DNA of 64,000 nt from an uncultured Candidatus Saccharibacteria bacterium (lineage in GTDB: Bacteria > Patescibacteriota > Minisyncoccia > Phycocordibacterales > CAIZLB01), in the NCBI GenBank assembly GCA_964417855.1, contig CAYQJB010000001.1:102709-166708 (forward strand), given 5' to 3'. The translations under genes and the position numbers were made by a program. The notes beneath the pieces are model-generated. The model was not told the DNA's origin. It saw nothing but the letters and a program-made list of their open reading frames with translations, and made no database searches. Of the stretch, positions 4,790-57,346 are shown piece after piece (position 1 is the first letter of the stretch; the number at the start of each line of letters is the position of its first letter).

Positions 4790-5479
4790 ATGAACAATAA
4801 ACAAATTAATTGTGAAGAAAAAGAAGACAAAAGAGAAAATAGCAAAATTAAATCTATTTTTTGCTATGGAGACGCCGATGTAAAGAAAATGATATGGTCA
4901 TTTAAGACCGATAAGACATTTTATAAATCGCAAGACAGCCTTATTCCACTAAGGGCTGTAGCTAAAGAACTTGTGAATGAAAATTTGCAAAATATCATTA
5001 TTTGCGTGCCTTCATCCTCATTTTGGCATAATAAAAAAAGTTTTGACCATATGCACTTATTTATAAGGAATTTAAGAAGATTTTTTGAAGGAATTTGTAA
5101 AAACAAATCATTTACAATCACAGATAAGCCGGTTTGCTCAAACTTTGAATATATCCCCTATTCAATAATTCCTCATTTGAACAAGGATTTACAGAAGGGA
5201 TTAAATAAAAATGAGCGCAGTATACAAACAGTCGGAGCATATCAATTAAGTTATTATTTTAAATTCCGTATAAAATTACTCCTGAAAAAAATAACTAGTC
5301 AAACCAATCAAACAGATCAAAACAAGAGTCCTATATTGCAGATTTTAATTATGGACGATGTGATGACAACAGGCTCAACAATAAAAGAGTGCCGTAGGGT
5401 TGTATATGAATACTTACAAAAAATAGAGGCGGATGAAGTGGTGCATGTAAACTGTTTAACACTAGCTTATGAAGCCTAA
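4790..5479 (+). CDS. comFC: ComFC-like phosphoribosyltransferase-domain competence protein
   Basis: C-terminal PRTase motif ILIMDDVMTTGSTI. Divergent from the pilus operon. Start may be an internal Met (for example 4892). Confidence 0.65.
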   Translation: MNNKQINCEEKEDKRENSKIKSIFCYGDADVKKMIWSFKTDKTFYKSQDSLIPLRAVAKELVNENLQNIIICVPSSSFWHNKKSFDHMHLFIRNLRRFFEGICKNKSFTITDKPVCSNFEYIPYSIIPHLNKDLQKGLNKNERSIQTVGAYQLSYYFKFRIKLLLKKITSQTNQTDQNKSPILQILIMDDVMTTGSTIKECRRVVYEYLQKIEADEVVHVNCLTLAYEA

Positions 5480-7558: not shown

Positions 7559-7891
7559 ATGATAATTACGACCAATTCAAGGTTTGACACCATCGGTAAT
7601 TTAATATATCATTCAAACATGCATTTGAATGAATTAGCCAAGTTAATACGCACAGCCGGTGATGAAAGTAGGCTCAAAATCCTATGCATTATTTTTAATA
7701 AGAAGAAAATATGCGTATCTGACCTAGCAGAAGAATTGCATATGGGCATAGCCATCGTATCCCATCACCTTCAAGTCATGTCTCGTGAAGGACTAGTAAT
7801 CCCTGTACGGGACGGCAAAAGAATTTGTTACGAGCTTCCCAAAGAAGCATTTATTAAAGACTTAAAAAAATTTATTTGTAAATACAAATAA
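7559..7891 (+). CDS. ArsR/SmtB-family HTH transcriptional regulator
   Basis: Winged-HTH core LKILCIIFNKKKICVSDLAEELHMGIAIVSHHLQVMSREGLV. True start probably Met at 7619. Confidence 0.7.
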   Translation: MIITTNSRFDTIGNLIYHSNMHLNELAKLIRTAGDESRLKILCIIFNKKKICVSDLAEELHMGIAIVSHHLQVMSREGLVIPVRDGKRICYELPKEAFIKDLKKFICKYK

Positions 7892-8954: not shown

Positions 8955-9041
8955 GGAGGATTGGATGAGCGGCTTAAATCAACAGTTTACTAAACTGTCG
9001 GCTTGGAAACAGGCCCGTGAGTTCGAATCTCACATCCTCCG
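8955..9041 (+). tRNA. Class II (long variable arm, Ser-type) tRNA with apparent anticodon ACU. Possible pseudo-tRNA or atypical tRNA-Ser
   Basis: Acceptor GGAGGAT/ATCCTCC. D stem GAT/ATC. Anticodon stem ACAGT/ACTGT with loop TTACTAA. Variable arm GGCTTG-GAAA-CAGGCC. T-arm GTGAGTTCGAATCTCAC. CCA not encoded. Confidence 0.65.
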
Positions 9042-9184
9042 CAAAATAATGGGCATAGCCCATATATTTTGCGAGAGTGCAGAATAGGTTGCGAAGCGAC
9101 CGTAATTCTGCCTCCGCAAGTCATATTACCCTTAAAATTTGACACCCTCTGTATCTTTGTTAAACTATAGGTACAAATAGACTT

Positions 9185-19410: not shown

Positions 19411-19523
19411 ATAGTTTCTGGTTAGTATGAATTATAGAATGAAGAAAAATCAGTGCATCTCACTGATTTAAATCCGTTTTTTATTATATACCTCTCCAAA
19501 AAATATTCAAGAAAAACCTTTTG

Positions 19524-19596
19524 TGCGAGCACTAGGATTCGAACCTAGGACCGGTCGTGTATAAGACGACTGCTCTACCAACTGAGCTATGCTCGC
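19524..19596 (-). tRNA. tRNA with anticodon UAU (AUA-decoding tRNA-Ile2 type)
   Basis: GCGAGCA acceptor. D-arm TAGCTCAGTTGGTAGAGC. Anticodon stem GTCGT/ACGAC with loop CTTATAC. T-arm CTAGGTTCGAATCCTAG. No CCA. Confidence 0.8.
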
Positions 19597-22841: not shown

Positions 22842-23239
22842 GGGGATGACATGCTTCGACACATGTCTGTATTCTTTATGTGCGTAACCGAGTGTCCTAG
22901 AATCTCGTTAAACTTCAGGAAACCTTAGATGCAAAAGCCCAAAAAGCAGTTGTTTCTCCATTTTTTGGAGTAAACAGCTTTGCATTTGCAACGGTTAGAG
23001 CCTAGCTCGCCCTCTTGCAACGTTCTTGTCTACTCTTTCTGTAGGTAGATAAAGGGCGCAATATATACAGGATAGGTTTGTAGAGTTTCTTAGACTACAA
23101 TCCAAAATCAATAAGATCGGTGACGCTGCGTTTTGATACTTTTATAGTATCGTCACTTAAAACCAAAAAATTGTCTACGTTACGTAGACTCATAAAGAAA
23201 CAACGTGTGCACGCGGGTTCAATTCCCGCCATCTCCACC
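22842..23239 (+). ncRNA. ssrA: tmRNA (ssrA), standard one-piece
   Basis: 5' end GGGGATGACATGCTTCGACA (compare E. coli GGGGCUGAUUCUGGAUUCGACG). 3' tRNA-like end GCGGGTTCAATTCCCGCCATCTCCACC with G3:U70 pair (compare GCGGGUUCAACUCCCGCCAGCUCCACCA). Candidate resume codon GCA at about 22930 preceded by UAG-AU as in E. coli UAG-UC-GCA. Putative tag reading frame ends ...AFATVRA-UAG. Confidence 0.85.
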
Positions 23240-23410
23240 GACAAACATAAGCCACCAAGCGTAAGCGAGGTGGTTTTATGTTTGGCGGATAAAGATGACC
23301 GCCAGGAATTGAAAGGCGGAAGAAAAGCTCTGGGAGAGGTTTTCTGAGCCGGGGTCGCGAGTACTTAGCGAAGACGAGCCATGCGAAGTCTGAGCTTAGT
23401 AACTCGTGAC

Positions 23411-50312: not shown

Positions 50313-51506
50313 TTAGGCTACGATCTTAGTTACAACGCCGGCTCCTACAGTTCTACCTCCCTCGCGAATAGCGAATCTTGTATTGTCTTCAAGAGCAATT
50401 GGGGCTACCAATTTAACCTTGAAAGTAACTGTATCACCAGGCATAACCATGTCTACGCCCTCCTTTAGAGTAACCTCTCCTGTTACGTCAGTTGTACGTA
50501 CGTAGAACTGAGGTTTGTAACCTGAGAAGAATGGAGTGTGTCGACCGCCTTCTTCCTTCTTAAGGATATAGACTTCTGCTTCAAAATCTGTATGTGGCTT
50601 AACTGATCCTGGCTTTGCTAGAACTTGACCTCTTGCAAGATCATCCTTCTTAACACTTCTTAGTAGAATACCAGCGTTGTCTCCAGCTTGACCTTCTGAC
50701 AATTGCTTGTTGAACATTTCAATACCTGTAACAACTGTTTTTTGAGTATCATGTAGTCCGATGATTTCAATTTCTTCACCGATCTTGATTATACCTTTTT
50801 CAATTTTACCTGTAACAACTGTTCCTCTTCCTTCAATTGAGAAAATATCTTCAATAGGCATAAGGAAAGGCTTATCAGTCTCTCTAACTGGTTGTGGAAT
50901 ATAGTTATCTAGAGCGTCAACTAATTCAAGAACCTTCTTTGACCATTCATCATCAATACCTGGAGCTTCAAGTGCCTTAAGCGCTGAACCTCTGATAACT
51001 GGTGCATCTTCGTCAAATCCGTTCTTTGCTAGAAGCTCTCTGATTTCTGCCTCAACTAGGTCAAGCATGTCTGCATCATCAACCATGTCACACTTGTTCA
51101 TGAATACAACAATCTTTGGAACACCAACTTGCTTTGCAAGTAGAACGTGCTCGCGAGTTTGTGGCATAGGTCCGTCAGTAGCAGCAACAACCAAGATTGC
51201 GCCGTCCATTTGAGCAGCTCCTGTGATCATGTTCTTGATGTAGTCGGCGTGGCCTGGTGCATCAATGTGAGCATAGTGTCTTGCGTTTGTAGTGTACTCA
51301 CTGTGTGAAAGTGAAATTGTAATACCACGAGCCTTTTCCTCTGGGGCCTTGTCAATATCTCCGATTGACTTAATTGTAGCCTTCATACCTGCTCTGTTAA
51401 GAACATTAAGAATAGCTGCAGTTAATGTAGTCTTTCCGTGATCAACGTGTCCAATTGTACCCACGTTAACGTGAGGCTTTGAACGATCAAAAATTTCTAT
51501 TGCCAT
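50313..51506 (-). CDS. tuf: Elongation factor Tu
   Basis: [26 protein letters not shown]-motifs. Confidence 0.95.
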
Positions 51507-51901
51507 ATATTTGCTTGATAATTAAATGAATATATCGATATTTATATGGATATCTCCATAAATCTTTATACTCACCAATTAATAAAAATTAAATTAATAA
51601 GTTTCTAAATTTTATCCCCAGTGCTTCTCTCAGTAGTTTAGCTTAATTATGTTTGATTCTTAATACTGCCTTAAATCAAAAAGAAGATTGGGATAAAAAA
51701 CCGCCAAAAGGCGTCTAATGGATAATATCAGAAGGTGGGGGTTTGTCAATGTCAAAGCTATAACCTACCCCCCCCCACTTAAGGTTAATCAACCCTGAAT
51801 TCTGTTTCGGTCTTTTGACCATCGTCAGACAAGATACACATCTTATGACAGAACCCGTTCACTCAACGGGCAGAGTTGCACAGTTTATGTGCTTTATTAC
51901 G

Positions 51902-52141
51902 CTATTCACATAACATTTCGAGGTATTTATCATCAAAATTTTCTACCTCATTCCAATCTTCACCTTGTCTTTTGACAAAAATGAAGTCTTCAACCCTTAA
52001 GGTTGTATTTGAAAAGACGAAGGCACAGCCTTCCTCTAGGGTCTTAACGGTTTGGAAATAAGCCATATAGGCAAATCCACCACCCGGGGCAAAACCCCAG
52101 CACTTAACCCATGTTACCTTTGCTTTTTGTGTGTTTTGCAT
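51902..52141 (-). CDS. Small hypothetical protein (80 aa, MQNTQKAKVTWVKCWGFAPGGGFAYMAYF...)
   Basis: Balanced composition. AGGA 13 nt upstream of ATG at 52141. About 60 nt downstream of the hammerhead motif. The longer track ORF (to 52246) overlaps the ribozyme. Confidence 0.3.
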   Translation of the reverse strand: MQNTQKAKVTWVKCWGFAPGGGFAYMAYFQTVKTLEEGCAFVFSNTTLRVEDFIFVKRQGEDWNEVENFDDKYLEMLCE

Positions 52142-52203
52142 AGTTATAAACGTCCTAACTTTAGAGATTAAGGCACTCGTAGCTACACAAAACGTTAAAA
52201 AGA

Positions 52204-52258
52204 ACCACTGTTTCGCTTTTTTAAGCTCATCAGTCGAAGTACGCACTTCGAGACAGAG
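52204..52258 (-). ncRNA. Hammerhead ribozyme motif, minimal type III (stem III open)
   Basis: Minus strand 5'-CCUCUG-UC / UCGAAGU-GCGU-ACUUCGA / CUGAUGA / GCUU-AAAA-AAGC / GAAA / CAGUGG-3'. Full catalytic core (CUGAUGA, GAAA, cleavage site GUC), G10.1-C11.1 and C15.2-G16.2 pairs, 7-bp stem I, 4-bp stem II, 6/7-bp stem III. Confidence 0.5.
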
Positions 52259-53149
52259 GACGGATAGAACGTCTATCCGTGATTTACTACAAGTACTCTA
52301 TCGAGCAGTTGTAATTTCTGTTCAAAAGGTAGTTTTCTCTACCTCGGCTTTTCATCTCGCGATAAAAGCAGAACTCAAAGCAATTATTTGCTTTGAACGT
52401 ACTCGCGATAATCCGCAAGGGACATCACGAGCCCGTCAACGACGACGTAGGTCATGGTTTATACTTTTTGAAATGTTCATTGCTATTAACACACTGTATT
52501 TTGGCTAATATTTATTAATTCTATTTAAGGACTCAAAATCAGCTCGATTTTGGATTAAATTAACAGTGTTTACTTATCTGTGTTGTAGTATAGCCATGTT
52601 CATATTTTTGTCAAGATGTTTTGACACTTTGTTTTTATTTTGTCATTTGTACCCTTTTATATAGCCATATTTAATCAATATAAAAGTAAATTGATAACAA
52701 CAAAACTCTATAAAGGGTATACAAAATTAGAAAATATATTATATTATGTTTTTTTATATTGCCAATCTAATTACCCAAGAATAAGGTCGTTTTAGCTTAA
52801 ATCTATTAAATGTCTAAATTGCTTGACAAAAGAATCAGACATGCTACATTGTGATACGGAATTTGACTGTACTTTCGGCTATAAAGCCGACAGATCAAAG
52901 TGTTCTAACCCAAAAGTGCAATGCCCGATTAACCCTAAAGGAAAGGTGGCTTGTCGTGAACCTAGCCGGGTTTTCACGACAGGCCTCTGAGTACTAAAAA
53001 AGGGACTTGTTTATAACTTCTGGGCATAGTAACCGCAAGCACACCATATACACCACCACCACAATGCATGATTAATTAGAATGATTGTCCTTTTTGAAAA
53101 CCCTTCATATTTGTAAACCTCCCCACCAAGGTAGTTCACAAACAAAAAA

Positions 53150-53177
53150 AGCTCGGTTCCTACCCAGGAACCGAGCT
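53150..53177 (-). terminator. Intrinsic terminator after the TrmB-like gene (agctcggttcc taccca ggaaccgagct + U7 on minus strand)
   Basis: Perfect 11-bp stem, A7 on plus strand upstream. Confidence 0.7.
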
Positions 53178-53198
53178 AATTTTTTACCTAATTTTTTC

Positions 53199-54047
53199 TT
53201 ATTTACCTTCCTCTATATTTTTAAAGGCTAATTCAAACAAAGAGGTTAGGGTTTCCGCAAAATCCTTATTATAAACAATCATTCCACCCAATTTTGATCC
53301 CAAAGTAGCTATTCTTACCTTATTGTTGTAAATACTAATATCGCAACTTAAAGGATACTTTTTACCATCTACGAACAACCTATTCCCCAAGTTAGCACTT
53401 CTGTCAATTTCCCCTTTTGAATACGTATATATTGATTTACCGGAAATTTTCTTATCTACCCTTATTTTACGGAATCTATTACTATCGGCCTCTGAAAACA
53501 GACTTTCTATTAAATCCTTTGGATAAATCATATACATAGTGCCGCCTTTGTCATCTTTTGATTGGAAAAGCTCCTCAGTCATACTTATAACGCCCTCTTT
53601 TCCTTCAAAAAATTTAACTACAGGCTTTTCAGCATCCTCTCTGTAAATACTCTTAAGTTGTGGAACTATATCCTTAAGTCTTTTACTTTGTTCATCCAGC
53701 TGTATTTTACGTCTTTCAATATAAGTCTCCAGTCTTTCTGGTGGTTCAGCTTGGTATCTAACCTTTTTATCAACTAAAACTTCAAATATTAGCCCTTTAT
53801 TTGAAAGCGATTCAAGTACTGGATAGATAGTTGTACGATTAATTTTAGTCTTCTCAGCTAAATCAAGTACAGAATCATTGTCTACCTCCAAAAGAGACAG
53901 GTAAACCTTTGCCTCTTTCTCTGATAAACCTAAATCTTCAAGATATTTTTCAAACATAAGCATATTATACCATAGAATATTTAAATTTCGTTTTAATAGA
54001 CAATTTTTGGTTTTAAATTGTACTGCAAATGTAGGATTATTTACCAA
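53199..54047 (-). CDS. TrmB-family transcriptional regulator (N-terminal wHTH, C-terminal effector domain)
   Basis: MFEKYLEDLGLSEKEAKVYLSLLEVDNDSVLDLAEKTKINRTTIYPVLESLSNKGLI matches the TrmB HTH. Start likely Met at about 53957. Confidence 0.65.
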   Translation of the reverse strand: MVNNPTFAVQFKTKNCLLKRNLNILWYNMLMFEKYLEDLGLSEKEAKVYLSLLEVDNDSVLDLAEKTKINRTTIYPVLESLSNKGLIFEVLVDKKVRYQAEPPERLETYIERRKIQLDEQSKRLKDIVPQLKSIYREDAEKPVVKFFEGKEGVISMTEELFQSKDDKGGTMYMIYPKDLIESLFSEADSNRFRKIRVDKKISGKSIYTYSKGEIDRSANLGNRLFVDGKKYPLSCDISIYNNKVRIATLGSKLGGMIVYNKDFAETLTSLFELAFKNIEEGK

Positions 54048-55119
54048 ATATTCCAGATAATAGATTGTTTACACCTTGCCAGATTGAAGCAAATAACCCA
54101 AAATTAGACAACTGAGATACCTTAGTACTAATTTTAACAACACCGGTACTTGTTGCGTTAAACTTAGGATTGTTTGTATCCGTAATTACAATTTTGTAAG
54201 GTTTATCATACTGAACAGCCTGACCAACAATATCCCAGGTTACACTTGCTTTTCCTCCACCTAAATTGGAACCAGCTGTTACTGAGCCTAAAATACTAGT
54301 TCCAACCCATCCAAAAGGAACTAACCCAATACTCACAGAATCAGTAGAAGATAAATTATTAGACGTCCAAACAATATCTTTTGTTACAACTGTTGTTTTT
54401 GTCTTAATATAGACCTTCAGATTAGGGTTACTAGTTGTTGTAGTAAAAGGTACCCAAGTCTCATCAACACTCAGAGATAATAAAGACAATGAACAAGGCA
54501 AGGAGATAGTAAGAGGAAATTGATTAGTAGTTTTTCCAGTATACAGAGCTCTTGCTTGAACCTTAGCTACTTGCCCTATTTCGTAATTATTACACAGAAT
54601 ATAGTTCGGAACTGTCAAAATTTCTGTAGTTGAAGCAGCGTTAATTTGCTTAATTAAAACACTATCGATATACAAAGACCAACTATTAACCTTTGAATTT
54701 GGGATATATAGATTACCGATTTTAAACGAATGATTACCTGGGTTGCTCTCAGTATCCACAGAATATATGTAAGGAGATGTTGTTGCAAGAACAATAGTTG
54801 AGGTAGCTACTGTTGAGCTTGCTAATTGCTTATTTAGCGTCTGAAGCTGCAGATTTAATGAGATTAGATTTTGCTGTAGTGTTGCAACAGAGACATCCGC
54901 TGAGGATAACTGGTTTTGAAGTGCTAAAATCTGTGAGTTTATTGATGAAATTTGAGTTCGAAATGAGCTAATCTGTGCAGTTGTTGATGCAATATCCTTT
55001 TTTGTTGAGTCTATCTGAGTTTGAATCTGTGCTGTTGTTGCTGCGTTTGTAATGAAGGGTGACACCAGCATGGAAACGCCTATCAGCGATAGTGCAACCA
55101 AATATATTTTTATTTTCAT
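54037..55119 (-). CDS. Secreted hypothetical protein (signal peptide, Gln/Ser-rich coiled coil, beta-rich C-terminal domain)
   Basis: N-terminal signal/TM. Heptad repeats QIQTQIDSTKKDIASTTAQISSFRTQISSINSQILALQNQL. Stop overlaps the TrmB start. Confidence 0.5.
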   Translation of the reverse strand: MKIKIYLVALSLIGVSMLVSPFITNAATTAQIQTQIDSTKKDIASTTAQISSFRTQISSINSQILALQNQLSSADVSVATLQQNLISLNLQLQTLNKQLASSTVATSTIVLATTSPYIYSVDTESNPGNHSFKIGNLYIPNSKVNSWSLYIDSVLIKQINAASTTEILTVPNYILCNNYEIGQVAKVQARALYTGKTTNQFPLTISLPCSLSLLSLSVDETWVPFTTTTSNPNLKVYIKTKTTVVTKDIVWTSNNLSSTDSVSIGLVPFGWVGTSILGSVTAGSNLGGGKASVTWDIVGQAVQYDKPYKIVITDTNNPKFNATSTGVVKISTKVSQLSNFGLFASIWQGVNNLLSGIFGK

Positions 55120-55192: not shown

Positions 55193-57346
55193 TTATTTTC
55201 TTGCCTCAACGATAGCCTTCTCAACGTTAGCTGGAACTGTATCGTAGTGATCAAATTCCATTGAAACTGAACCTCTTCCCTGTGTCATTGATCTAATATC
55301 TGTTGTATAACCGAACATTTCAGATAGAGGAACCATGGCTCTAATAACTCTAATTCCACCTGGTCTATCATCCATTCCTTCAATTTGACCTCTCTTTGAT
55401 GAAAGTGAACCGGTAACGTCTCCCATGAATTGTTCTGGTGTTAGAGCTTCAACCTTCATTATAGGTTCAAGAATAACAGGTCTTGCGCGTCTTGCTCCCT
55501 CTTGGAAAGCTTGAGAAGCTGCAATCTTGTAAGCGATTTCTGATGAGTCAACATCATGGTATGAACCAAATGTTAATTCACAAGATACATTTGTTAGAGG
55601 GAAACCAGCAACAATACCTCTTTCCATAGCTTCCTTAACTCCCTTTTCAACTGCTGGAATGAATTCTGTTGGAATAACACCTCCCTTAATTGAGTCAATA
55701 AACTCAAAGTCAGCTGTTCTATGAACGTTTTTAGGAATTTTAGCTCCTTCCTCAAGTGGCTCTAGGTGCTTAATTGTCATTCTAACGTGTCCATATTGCC
55801 CCTTACCTCCAGATTGCTTAACATATTTATGTTCAGCTTCTGCACTTCCTAGAATTGTCTCTCTGTATGCAACCTGAGGAGCACCAACATTAGCCTCAAC
55901 ACCAAACTCTCTCTTCATTCTATCAACCATAATTTCAAGGTGTAGTTCACCCATTCCAGAAATAACAGTATCTCCAGTTTCTGTGTTTGATGTAACTCTA
56001 AAAGTTGGATCTTCATCACCTAATTTCTTAAGTGCAACACCCATTTTCTCTTGATCAGCCTTTGTTTTAGGCTCGATTCTAAGTGAAACAACAGGTTCTG
56101 CAAATTTAATAGGGTCAAGAATGATTGGGTGATTTTCATCACAGAAAGTATGAGATGTCTTTGCTTCCTTAAGACCAACAGCCGCAACGATTTCTCCTGC
56201 AAAAACTTTCTTAACATCCTCTCTTTTATTTGCCTGAAGTCTAACGATACGCCCAAGTCTCTCCTTATTTCCTGTTGTTGAGTTGTAAATATATGAACCA
56301 GCTTCAATTGTTCCTGAATAAACACGGAAGAATGTAAGTTGTCCAACAAACGGGTCAGTTTGTAGCTTGAAAGCAAGAGCAGAAAAAGGCTCTTCATCTG
56401 AAGCGTGTCTTTCAATTACATCTCCTGTTTCTGGATCGAGACCTTTTATAGCAGGAATATCTAATGGAGATGGAAGGTAATCGATAACAGCATCCAAAAC
56501 TAGTTGAACACCCTTATTTTTAAGAGCAGAACCTGTGAAAACTGGGAATACCTTGTTCTCAATAACTCCTTTTCTAAGAGAAGCCTTAAGCTCATCTATT
56601 GTAAACACAGCGTCATCACCTTGTTCTAGATATCTGTTCATCAACTCTTCATCAAATTCAACACACTTCTCTACAAGCTCTTGTCTTCTCAGCTTTGACT
56701 CATCAAGCATGTCAGCAGGAATTTCTTCTTCTGTAACAGTACTTCCCATATCTCCTGTAAATGTGTATGACTTCATCTTAAGAAGGTCAATTACTCCAGA
56801 CAGATTCTCTTCTTCTCCGATTGGAAGTTGCATTCTTATTGCATTCTTATTTAGTCTATCCAAAATTGATTGATATGATCTCTCAAATGATGCACCCATT
56901 CTATCTAGCTTATTAATAAAACATATACGTGGAACGTGATATTTATCAGCTTGTCTCCAAACTGTCTCAGATTGAGCTTCAACACCAGCAACCCCATCAA
57001 ATACTACAACTCCACCATCAAGAACCTTTAGAGAACGTTCAACTTCAACTGTGAAGTCTACGTGACCTGGTGTGTCAATAATGTTGAAACGGTGCATCTT
57101 AGAAAGATCCTTACCCATGTAAACTGGATTCCAGAAACAAGTAATAGCAGCTGCAGTAATTGTAATACCACGCTCTTTTTCTTGTTCCATCCAGTCTGTT
57201 ACAGCTTCACCTTCATGAACCTCTCCAATTTTATGGCTCATTCCTGTGTAATAAAGAACACGTTCTGATGTTGTTGTCTTTCCAGCATCAATGTGGGCGA
57301 TAATACCGAAGTTTCTAATTTTCTCTAATGGGTAATCACGTTGCAT
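55193..57346 (-). CDS. fusA: Elongation factor G
   Basis: [34 protein letters not shown]-motifs. 717 aa. Confidence 0.95.

Follow-up and report, generated by a model that had tools for sequence, protein, structure and literature searches.

Two predicted type III hammerhead ribozymes bracket a small gene in the fusA-tuf spacer of a Candidatus Saccharibacteria genome

Is a hammerhead-like sequence between fusA and tuf of a Patescibacteria genome a genuine ribozyme, and if it is, what might it do there? The question arises from contig CAYQJB010000001.1 (assembly GCA_964417855.1) of an uncultured Candidatus Saccharibacteria bacterium, of which we analyzed positions 102,709 to 166,708, a stretch of 64,000 nucleotides that we call the window and number from its first letter. 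An original prediction, made from the letters of this DNA, had described a single type III hammerhead on the minus strand, upstream of a small open reading frame (ORF) in the fusA-tuf spacer. The location is right, since the genes of EF-G (55193..57346) and EF-Tu (50313..51506) flank the motif. The motif does not stand alone, however. A second hammerhead, overlooked at first, lies past the ORF, so that the pair brackets it. We call the two ribozymes HH1 and HH2 and the ORF between them ORF80.

52203..52261 (core and helices 52259..52205), minus strand: HH1, type III hammerhead, identified with RF00008 and with the covariance models R1 and R2 described below
51902..52141, minus strand: ORF80, coding for a 79-aa protein, from the ORF list and its homologue P0002
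51856..51797, minus strand: HH2, second type III hammerhead, identified with R1, R2 and the minimum free energy (MFE) fold

The RNA of HH1, read on the minus strand from 52259 to 52205, is CCUCUG-UC / UCGAAGU-GCGU-ACUUCGA / CUGAUGA / GCUU-AAAA-AAGC / GAAA / CAGUGG. Direct reading confirms that the core is exact (C3-A9 is CUGAUGA, G12-A14 is GAA, A15.1-U16.1 and C17 are present, and the cleavage triplet is GUC), that the core-closing pairs G10.1-C11.1 and C15.2-G16.2 are both present, and that the three helices come in the expected order. Stem I (7 bp) and stem II (4 bp) are loop-closed, and stem III is open, with 6 bp and one U.U mismatch over its seven positions. The hammerhead fold is iso-energetic with the MFE structure (-13.4 kcal/mol). 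Two positions needed revision. The span first given as 52204-52258 is shifted by one base relative to 52259..52205, and cleavage, placed earlier at about 52236, is predicted 3' of C52252, between 52252 and 52251, because GUC occupies 52254..52252.

An Infernal search with the Rfam family RF00008 (Hammerhead_3), proposed as a check in the original prediction, gave a divided answer. In a permissive scan HH1 matches the 54-position model over its full length, with an E-value of 6e-8 in a 1.8-kb scan and 2.2e-6 in the whole window (both strands, all 4227 families), but its 44.2 bits fall below the gathering score of 48.5, the curated threshold. At gathering thresholds, the only Rfam matches in the whole window are a transfer-messenger RNA (tmRNA) and two tRNAs. 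We then used two models of our own. R1 was made from a 59-sequence alignment that included HH1 and HH2. Because it contained both window sequences, the model was rebuilt as R2 from 117 viral hammerhead matches alone. HH1 scores 68.5 bits with R1 and 65.1 bits with R2 (E=1.6e-16). In the window, R1 matches HH1 and HH2 alone, the next match having 11 bits, and R2 returns nothing at E<=1 over the 64 kb beyond these two. Twister, pistol, hatchet and hepatitis delta virus (HDV)-like ribozymes were sought in the window and gave no match at E<=0.1.

Could HH1, lying in intergenic DNA that is rich in AT, resemble the hammerhead consensus by chance? The sub-threshold RF00008 score would fit this, as would the near-chance rate of loose CUGANGA...GAAA patterns (8 observed, 4.1 expected). 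However, the independent R2 model gives E=1.6e-16 for HH1 and 5e-15 for HH2, the latter is placed exactly where the arrangement of the family predicts it, and homologous hammerheads occur in syntenic cassettes elsewhere. One such relative, in the metagenome contig L202 (5364-5422), is the same as HH1 apart from one base of loop 1 (GUGU in L202) and the flanks. In addition, R1 matched nothing in the tuf loci of 80 other genomes (1 Mb in total), and therefore the fusA-tuf spacer does not as a rule carry hammerheads. The probability of a chance match is negligible, in line with the rough estimate made at the outset. The type III identity is now backed by two independent covariance models, by stem covariation (see below) and by a 90%-identical homologue elsewhere. 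Judged by its sequence, HH1 is a genuine type III hammerhead, far beyond chance, though below the curated cut-off. Since related hammerheads in the contigs L202, L204, L208 and L248 also score only 35-49 bits with RF00008, we read the Rfam threshold as under-calling this phage subfamily rather than as excluding HH1 and HH2.

The second ribozyme has the architecture of the first, with stems I, II and III of 7, 4 and 9 bp. Its RNA reads GGGUUCUGUC / AUAAGAU-GUGU-AUCUUGU / CUGACGA-U-GGUC-AAAA-GACC / GAAA / CAGAAUUC, with CUGACGA, GAAA and GUC as its core elements (C occupies N7 in 14 of 104 family members), and with cleavage predicted 3' of C51847. It scores 62.7 bits with R1 and 60.0 bits with R2, and its MFE fold is exactly the hammerhead three-way junction. 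Stems I and II of HH2 differ from those of HH1 at most positions while pairing is kept, and their differences from the orthologous hammerhead of L248 are all compensated. A distance of 405 nt, with ORF80 inside it, separates the two predicted cleavage sites, which are on the same strand.

To which family do these ribozymes belong? A search pattern with a fixed core, set helix lengths and AAAA as loop 2, which left the stems free, matched at least 120 viral contigs of IMG/VR, which bears out the suggested link with phage or mobile DNA. Among the matches listed, stem I is a perfect 7-bp helix in 116 of the 118 copies with an 18-nt stem-loop I, and the loop 1 of these 118 is most often GUGU (78 copies) or GAGU (21). 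The subfamily, to which both HH1 and HH2 belong, is characterized by a GUGU loop on a stem I of 7 bp and an NAAA loop on a stem II of 4 bp. Its helices are backed by strong covariation: in an alignment of 59 sequences (A2), where the search pattern set the core columns and not the stem columns, 98% of the cells in the three helices are paired (71.5% in shuffles), double-change cells number 277 (80 in shuffles), and pairing falls to 32-47% when partner columns are slid.

A looser pattern that left the loops unconstrained sorts the type III hammerheads of phages into several classes by loop. All 10 copies whose 7-bp stem I carries a G[UA]G[UC] loop also have a 4-bp stem II and an NAAA loop, against 3 of 63 among the others (Fisher p=4.6e-10, in a count that ignores kinship among the sequences). 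This co-occurrence suggests a tertiary contact between loops 1 and 2 in the 7-bp/GUGU subfamily, and a need for high Mg2+ is therefore not implied. The earlier description of HH1 as a minimal motif that might need high Mg2+ probably does not apply. Contigs related to the window also hold hammerhead variants (L202 5794-5852, L207 2855-2913 and 3160-3219). In these, U.U replaces the G10.1-C11.1 pair (CUGAUGA-UUCC-GAAA-GGAU-GAAA), and one of them has U15.2-A16.2 plus an AUU cleavage triplet. They may be natural core-adjacent variants.

The bracketing of a gene by same-strand hammerheads is common among the viral relatives. Over 100 listed viral loci, R1 found 182 copies, with 2-6 copies in 44 of the loci, where strands were never mixed and copies were at least 294 nt apart (median about 1050 nt). 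Where two copies were at most 1.3 kb apart (56 distinct intervals), the longest ORF on the ribozyme strand covers 77% of the interval, against 28% for the opposite strand. The bracketed ORFs, which span 60-370 aa, usually start 12-25 nt past one hammerhead and stop 18-35 nt before the next. Their products form 30 unrelated groups with few annotations, namely an anti-restriction protein and a gamma-glutamyl cyclotransferase, both of the PHROG category "moron, auxiliary metabolic gene and host takeover". Another shared trait is a hairpin immediately 5' of the ribozyme: the 42 nt directly upstream of family hammerheads have a mean MFE of -12.9 kcal/mol, compared with -5.7 kcal/mol for controls that lie another 200 nt upstream (p=4e-19), and both HH1 (-11.4 kcal/mol) and HH2 (-16.5 kcal/mol) have it.

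In the window, the bracketed gene is ORF80. It had been placed about 60 nt downstream of HH1, which is correct (its ATG comes 63 nt past the ribozyme), and credited with 80 aa, which should read 79. Its stop codon lies 45 nt before HH2. ORF80 has no match in Pfam or in PHROG, a word-indexed search of 5.8 billion proteins returned only an identical Logan sequence, and a tblastn-type scan of Joint Genome Institute (JGI) metagenome contigs returned nothing. An exhaustive HMMER search of 1.84 billion representatives did identify a homologue, P0002 (80 aa, E=5e-14), with 44-46% identity end to end. In the contigs that encode P0002, a subfamily hammerhead follows its stop codon by 42 nt. The AlphaFold model of ORF80 alone has low confidence (pLDDT 54). 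The RNA between the two predicted cleavage sites (52251..51847, 405 nt) is highly structured (MFE fold, z=-4.9) and includes the following elements.

51854..51892, minus strand: two hairpins of the 3' untranslated region (UTR), between the ORF80 stop and HH2 (GCACA-UAAAC-UGUGC and CCCGUU-GAGUG-AACGGG)
52133..52193, minus strand: predicted hairpin of about 24 bp over the AGGA Shine-Dalgarno sequence and AUG of ORF80, from the MFE fold

Both 3' UTR hairpins are kept in the contigs L248 and L251 with compensatory changes. The long hairpin is not conserved in the P0002 contigs.

On the other side of HH1, the run of hairpins noticed earlier is also confirmed.

52262..52462, minus strand: structured leader of seven consecutive hairpins directly 5' of HH1, from folding and homology to L202

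The 329-nt RNA 52580..52252, which holds the leader, has a z of -7.1. Hairpins and HH1 together (52460..52208) form a block that is about 90% identical to L202 5165-5421 (the leader by itself matches 5165-5363), with homology ending directly after GAAACAG and with flanks that do not align. A consensus fold of the two leader sequences has 65 pairs, none of them broken, with 2 compensatory and 10 one-sided, pairing-compatible changes. The leader has no match to any Rfam family. It includes a 23-codon ORF on the minus strand (52455..52384, MTYVVVDGLVMSLADYREYVQSK), whose start, ATGACCTACGTCGT, recurs in L204. The short ORF begins with MTYVV and has a conserved tail (...GLVMSL.(D/E)YREYV.SK); it has 23 aa in the window and 16 aa in L204 (about 7685-7735), and in L202 (5174-5242) it lies within a 76-aa ORF. 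It may be translated, or it may be merely a conserved RNA. A role of the leader as an RNA anti-CRISPR was considered and dropped: the study in question (PMC10651486) uses hammerheads only as an engineering tool.

Given such a leader, HH1 could mainly serve to make the 3' end of a non-coding RNA (about 52580..52252), such as a regulatory or decoy RNA or the carrier of the 23-aa peptide, with ORF80 as a separate cassette downstream. No other block of the locus is as conserved as the leader with HH1 (about 90% to L202, with unaligned neighbours), the fold has a z of -7.1, every substitution in a predicted stem preserves pairing, and in L202 the block again stands just upstream of a hammerhead, in a cassette without a tightly placed ORF. 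Yet the covariation is thin, coming from two independent sequences and two compensatory pairs, the leader belongs to no Rfam family, and the MTYVV-start ORF of the window and L204, together with the related peptide of L202, may mean that this is a small-peptide cassette. We regard the idea as unlikely in its own right; it is also compatible with the explanation that we prefer, rather than exclusive of it.

What would control the transcript? Upstream of the leader we identified a regulator gene together with palindromes and several predicted promoters.

53199..53963, minus strand: gene of a TrmB-like winged-helix regulator (Pfam PF01978, E=1e-15)
52614..52587, minus strand: predicted promoter TTGACA-16-TATACT, from a promoter scan (11/12 matches)
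52609-52626: exact palindrome TGTCAA-N6-TTGACA, over the -35 box of promoter 52614..52587
52738..52850: regulatory block conserved with L202, with two opposed promoters and a second palindrome
52765..52738, minus strand: second promoter, from the promoter scan
52823-52850, plus strand: promoter with its -35 box within the second palindrome
52811-52828: copy of the palindrome with one mismatch, over the -35 box of the plus-strand promoter

The start of the transcript is predicted near 52580 for the promoter at 52614..52587, and this promoter and the plus-strand one, each with a palindrome over its -35 box, are divergent. The TrmB-like gene lies about 940 nt upstream of HH1 (a gap of 938 nt), and the gap region 52870..52577 is conserved with L202. 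Homologues of the regulator with 51-68% identity occur in the metagenome contigs L202, L204, L207 and L208, and all four have subfamily hammerheads on the same strand 0.95-1.5 kb past the regulator gene, with no long ORF between. This layout is found in 4 of the 7 full-length homologues with at least 51% identity; the contigs L203, L205 and L206, with TrmB homologues of 51-53% identity, gave no further ribozymes.

In a set of 347 fetched loci, we found the exact palindrome solely where a TrmB homologue is present (in 17 of the 46 metagenome loci and in L001, which is identical to the window); none of the viral, tuf or P0002 loci fetched has it. Because it is confined to these loci and overlaps the -35 box, the palindrome is probably the operator of the TrmB-like regulator, and we infer that the hammerhead operon is under the control of this protein. 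The palindrome is upstream of the TrmB-like gene in a group of homologues with 37% identity and downstream of it in the closer group. We also noted a candidate non-coding RNA of about 330 nt (window 52857-53190, plus strand, z=-5.0), convergent with the TrmB-like gene, with the promoter 52823-52850 and a bidirectional terminator at 53150-53177. It is in part conserved with L202 and has no match to any Rfam family.

Taken together, we consider it fairly probable that we are dealing with a small accessory operon of the kind carried by phages or mobile elements, in which a TrmB-controlled transcript is cut co-transcriptionally by two hammerheads. That the hammerheads may process a structured transcript, as first proposed, is the best reading. 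The promoter 52614..52587 would drive a minus-strand transcript, and the TrmB-like regulator would probably bind the operator-like palindrome over it. HH1 and HH2 would act in cis and cut the nascent RNA after C52252 and C51847. Three products would result: a structured leader RNA (about 330 nt) with a hairpin and a 2',3'-cyclic phosphate at its end; a 405-nt monocistronic ORF80 RNA that begins with a 5'-OH and the hammerhead hairpins and whose 3' end has two hairpins and a cyclic phosphate; and the downstream remainder of the transcript. RNAs with 5'-OH ends are poor substrates for 5'-monophosphate-dependent decay. Each hammerhead would uncouple a cassette made of gene, 3' hairpins and hammerhead from its neighbours, and the cassettes would gain defined structured ends and a stability and translation independent of context. 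The sequences themselves show the two motifs and their family, the covariation, the bracketing of ORF80, related cassettes in other contigs and the association of regulator with palindrome; the transcription start, self-cleavage, TrmB binding and the effects on stability and translation are all steps that we infer.

The fate of the 405-nt RNA could also be a different one. RNAs with 5'-OH and cyclic-phosphate ends are substrates of RtcB-type ligation, and two same-strand hammerheads flank a highly structured unit (z=-4.9). An RtcB-type ligase, or the hammerhead reaction run in reverse, might therefore close the released unit into a stable and possibly translatable circular RNA like those of retrozymes and viroid-like RNAs. 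This possibility has been raised for clustered prophage hammerheads, although circular or spliced products were sought there and not detected (PMC3088659). In our locus, stems I and II of HH1 bear no sequence relationship to those of HH2, the two are not repeats of one ribozyme, and their closest homologues are in different contigs. The hybrid hammerhead would have a stem III of only 4 bp with a mismatch, and its MFE structure is not the hammerhead fold. Finally, phage ribozymes bracket many consecutive genes (60-370 aa), which fits mRNA processing better. Circularization is thus very unlikely, and the processing of an operon transcript remains the explanation that we prefer.

How did such an operon come to lie between fusA and tuf? 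The best matches of EF-Tu (88% identity and below) are in metagenome-assembled genomes of Patescibacteria (Candidate Phyla Radiation, CPR). The fusA-tuf gap has 3686 nt in the window, 126-6270 nt in Patescibacteria relatives and 50-200 nt in ordinary bacteria. When compared with the three closest relatives, alignment is limited to the ends of fusA and tuf: the 3.7-kb spacer shares nothing with them, and the inserted character attributed to this region holds. ORF80, the TrmB-like gene, a 360-aa gene and the hammerhead are absent from the tuf loci of all 80 relatives. The 360-aa ORF (54037-55119, minus strand) lies between fusA and the TrmB-like gene and has an N-terminal hydrophobic segment and a Q/S/T-rich, coiled-coil-like stretch with weak matches to coiled-coil Pfam families. 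We found no convincing direct or inverted repeats bounding the island. A blastn search of 1.7 kb of the spacer against 50,697 phage genomes gave one 50-nt AT-rich match (E=3e-3), which we judged to be due to chance. Because the window has no integrase or phage structural gene, calling the operon phage-derived rests on its relatives elsewhere.

Several observations weigh against an active operon of this kind. Beyond the sub-threshold Rfam score, HH1 has the U.U mismatch in its stem III, and its loop 1, GCGU, is rare, the C occurring at that position in 1 of the 118 listed family members. HH2 has an extra U between A9 and G10.1, seen in no other member examined, and this ribozyme is missing from the Rfam scan even with E-values of up to 10 allowed. 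Natural viroid and satellite hammerheads with additional bases in the place of the extra U were reportedly described by De la Peña and Flores in 2001. Because each ribozyme carries a rare deviation, HH1 or HH2 could be slow. The ATG of ORF80 lies 63 nt from HH1, compared with the usual 12-25 nt, and the long predicted hairpin would bury its Shine-Dalgarno sequence and AUG. The promoters are consensus matches alone, and integrase and phage structural genes were not found in the window. Lastly, the other copy of the locus, in Logan contig L001, is 100% identical to the window and adds no information, and we dropped it as independent evidence for this reason.

Some of these points would suit a decaying remnant of a phage or mobile element, whose hammerheads are intact but useless to the host, or only weakly active. 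Neither an integrase nor phage structural genes nor the boundaries of an element were found in the window, each hammerhead has one rare deviation, the ribosome-binding site of ORF80 is predicted to be buried, and the island is missing from the closest relatives. Against this, both cores are intact, ORF80 is full length when compared with P0002, the stems of HH2 and the 3' UTR hairpins have changed solely in compensatory ways, and the regulator gene is intact, as are the palindromes and promoters, all of them conserved with L202. We consider a relic improbable, about as much so as a leader RNA being the main product of HH1.

The relatives of the locus point to a wider pattern. Homology stops within a few bases of hammerhead 3' ends, at 52208/52207 and 51800/51799 in the window, at 5421 in L202 and at 1486 in L248, and therefore the shared units are a gene or leader followed by hairpins and a hammerhead. 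The combinations of cassettes differ from contig to contig. Homologous cassettes adjoin STIV_B116-like genes and tRNA or tmRNA-like sequences, and STIV_B116-like genes are also found in the L204 and L208 cassettes. Because homology ends at hammerhead 3' ends and each contig has its own combination of cassettes, one may speculate that units made of ribosome-binding site, gene, hairpins and hammerhead are exchangeable within an accessory or anti-defence island of Patescibacteria and phages, controlled by a TrmB-like repressor, and that the conserved ribozyme sequence marks, and perhaps promotes, recombination junctions. This is a tentative idea that we hold to be rather unlikely as a whole. In a bolder variant, the excised 405-nt RNA would be circularized, stable and translatable.

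The contig L248, which encodes P0002, deserves a separate mention. It also has an STIV_B116-like gene of the DUF1874/AcrIII-1 family, and the DUF1874 family includes the AcrIII-1 viral ring nucleases (bioRxiv 10.1101/778746). Just upstream of this gene is a twister-P1-like match (392-455) with 53 bits, the gathering score being 67. An 84-nt RNA of the same contig (858-941) matches only the tRNA-like domain of tmRNA (Rfam, 74 bits) and has a CCA end. Two ribozyme classes thus seem to punctuate one gene array in L248. In the window itself, away from the spacer, ARAGORN reports a tRNA-Ser with the unusual anticodon ACU (8955-9042, plus strand), for which Rfam gives a sub-threshold tRNA-Sec-like match of 34 bits, and a tRNA-Ile(UAU) (19523-19596, minus strand). 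The tmRNA (22842-23240, plus strand) has 127 bits with Rfam and is not reported by ARAGORN.

How does the locus compare with known systems? HH1 shares with RF00008 (clan CL00010) the full core, the three helices with helix III open, the GUC triplet and the closing pairs. The RF00008 model, whose hammerheads we take to come chiefly from plant viroids and satellites, has a loop consensus unlike the loops of HH1 and HH2, and the latter are encoded in a bacterial DNA genome rather than in a circular RNA replicon. The closest precedent is the work of Perreault et al. 2011, in which multiple prophage hammerheads are described that flank single genes or short blocks of varying identity, with three arrangements cleaved in vitro and in E. 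coli, with a triple arrangement around ardA in Agrobacterium tumefaciens, and with the processing of long transcripts as the proposed role (PMC3088659). As in that study, same-strand hammerheads a few hundred nt apart bracket a small accessory gene, and the phage relatives of HH1 and HH2 also bracket an anti-restriction gene. Unlike the cases given there, the window has only two ribozymes, one small gene and no recognizable prophage, its host belongs to the Patescibacteria, and the island lies inside the str/S10 ribosomal gene region. The link to a TrmB-like regulator and a palindrome is unmentioned in the passages of that paper that we consulted.

Retrozymes and viroid-like RNAs (PMC4918200) also have type III hammerheads that flank a structured unit of a few hundred nt with ligatable ends. 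In the window, by contrast, the two hammerheads are not near-identical copies, a conserved protein of 79 aa is encoded between them, their hybrid would make a weak ribozyme, and there is no sign of tandem or multi-copy organization. A further comparison, by functional analogy, is with synthetic ribozyme insulators of the RiboJ type, in which a satellite-RNA hammerhead and a hairpin are placed ahead of the ribosome-binding site. There, as might be the case with HH1, an upstream hammerhead strips the context and leaves a defined structured 5' end; HH1 and HH2 differ in being natural, in standing also at the 3' side of the gene, and in the 63-nt spacing of ORF80. Hence, the locus reveals no new RNA class and no new mechanism: the paired, gene-bracketing arrangement is already known from phages, and hammerheads of this kind have been known since 2010-2011.

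What the locus adds is the Patescibacteria host, the link to a TrmB-like regulator and its palindrome, and homology blocks that end at hammerheads, a hint of modular cassettes. No relevant paper in the literature that we searched links hammerheads of the phage type III subfamily with Patescibacteria. The biological role of bacterial hammerheads has been described as an open question (PMC6765202, PMC6155905). The locus is compact, with one candidate regulator and operator, one promoter, two ribozymes and one conserved small gene, and would therefore be easy to rebuild in E. coli to test how bracketing affects RNA stability and translation. For the family, the results show that the commonest phage type III subfamily falls under the Rfam gathering score, and that such ribozymes occur in genomes of Patescibacteria too.

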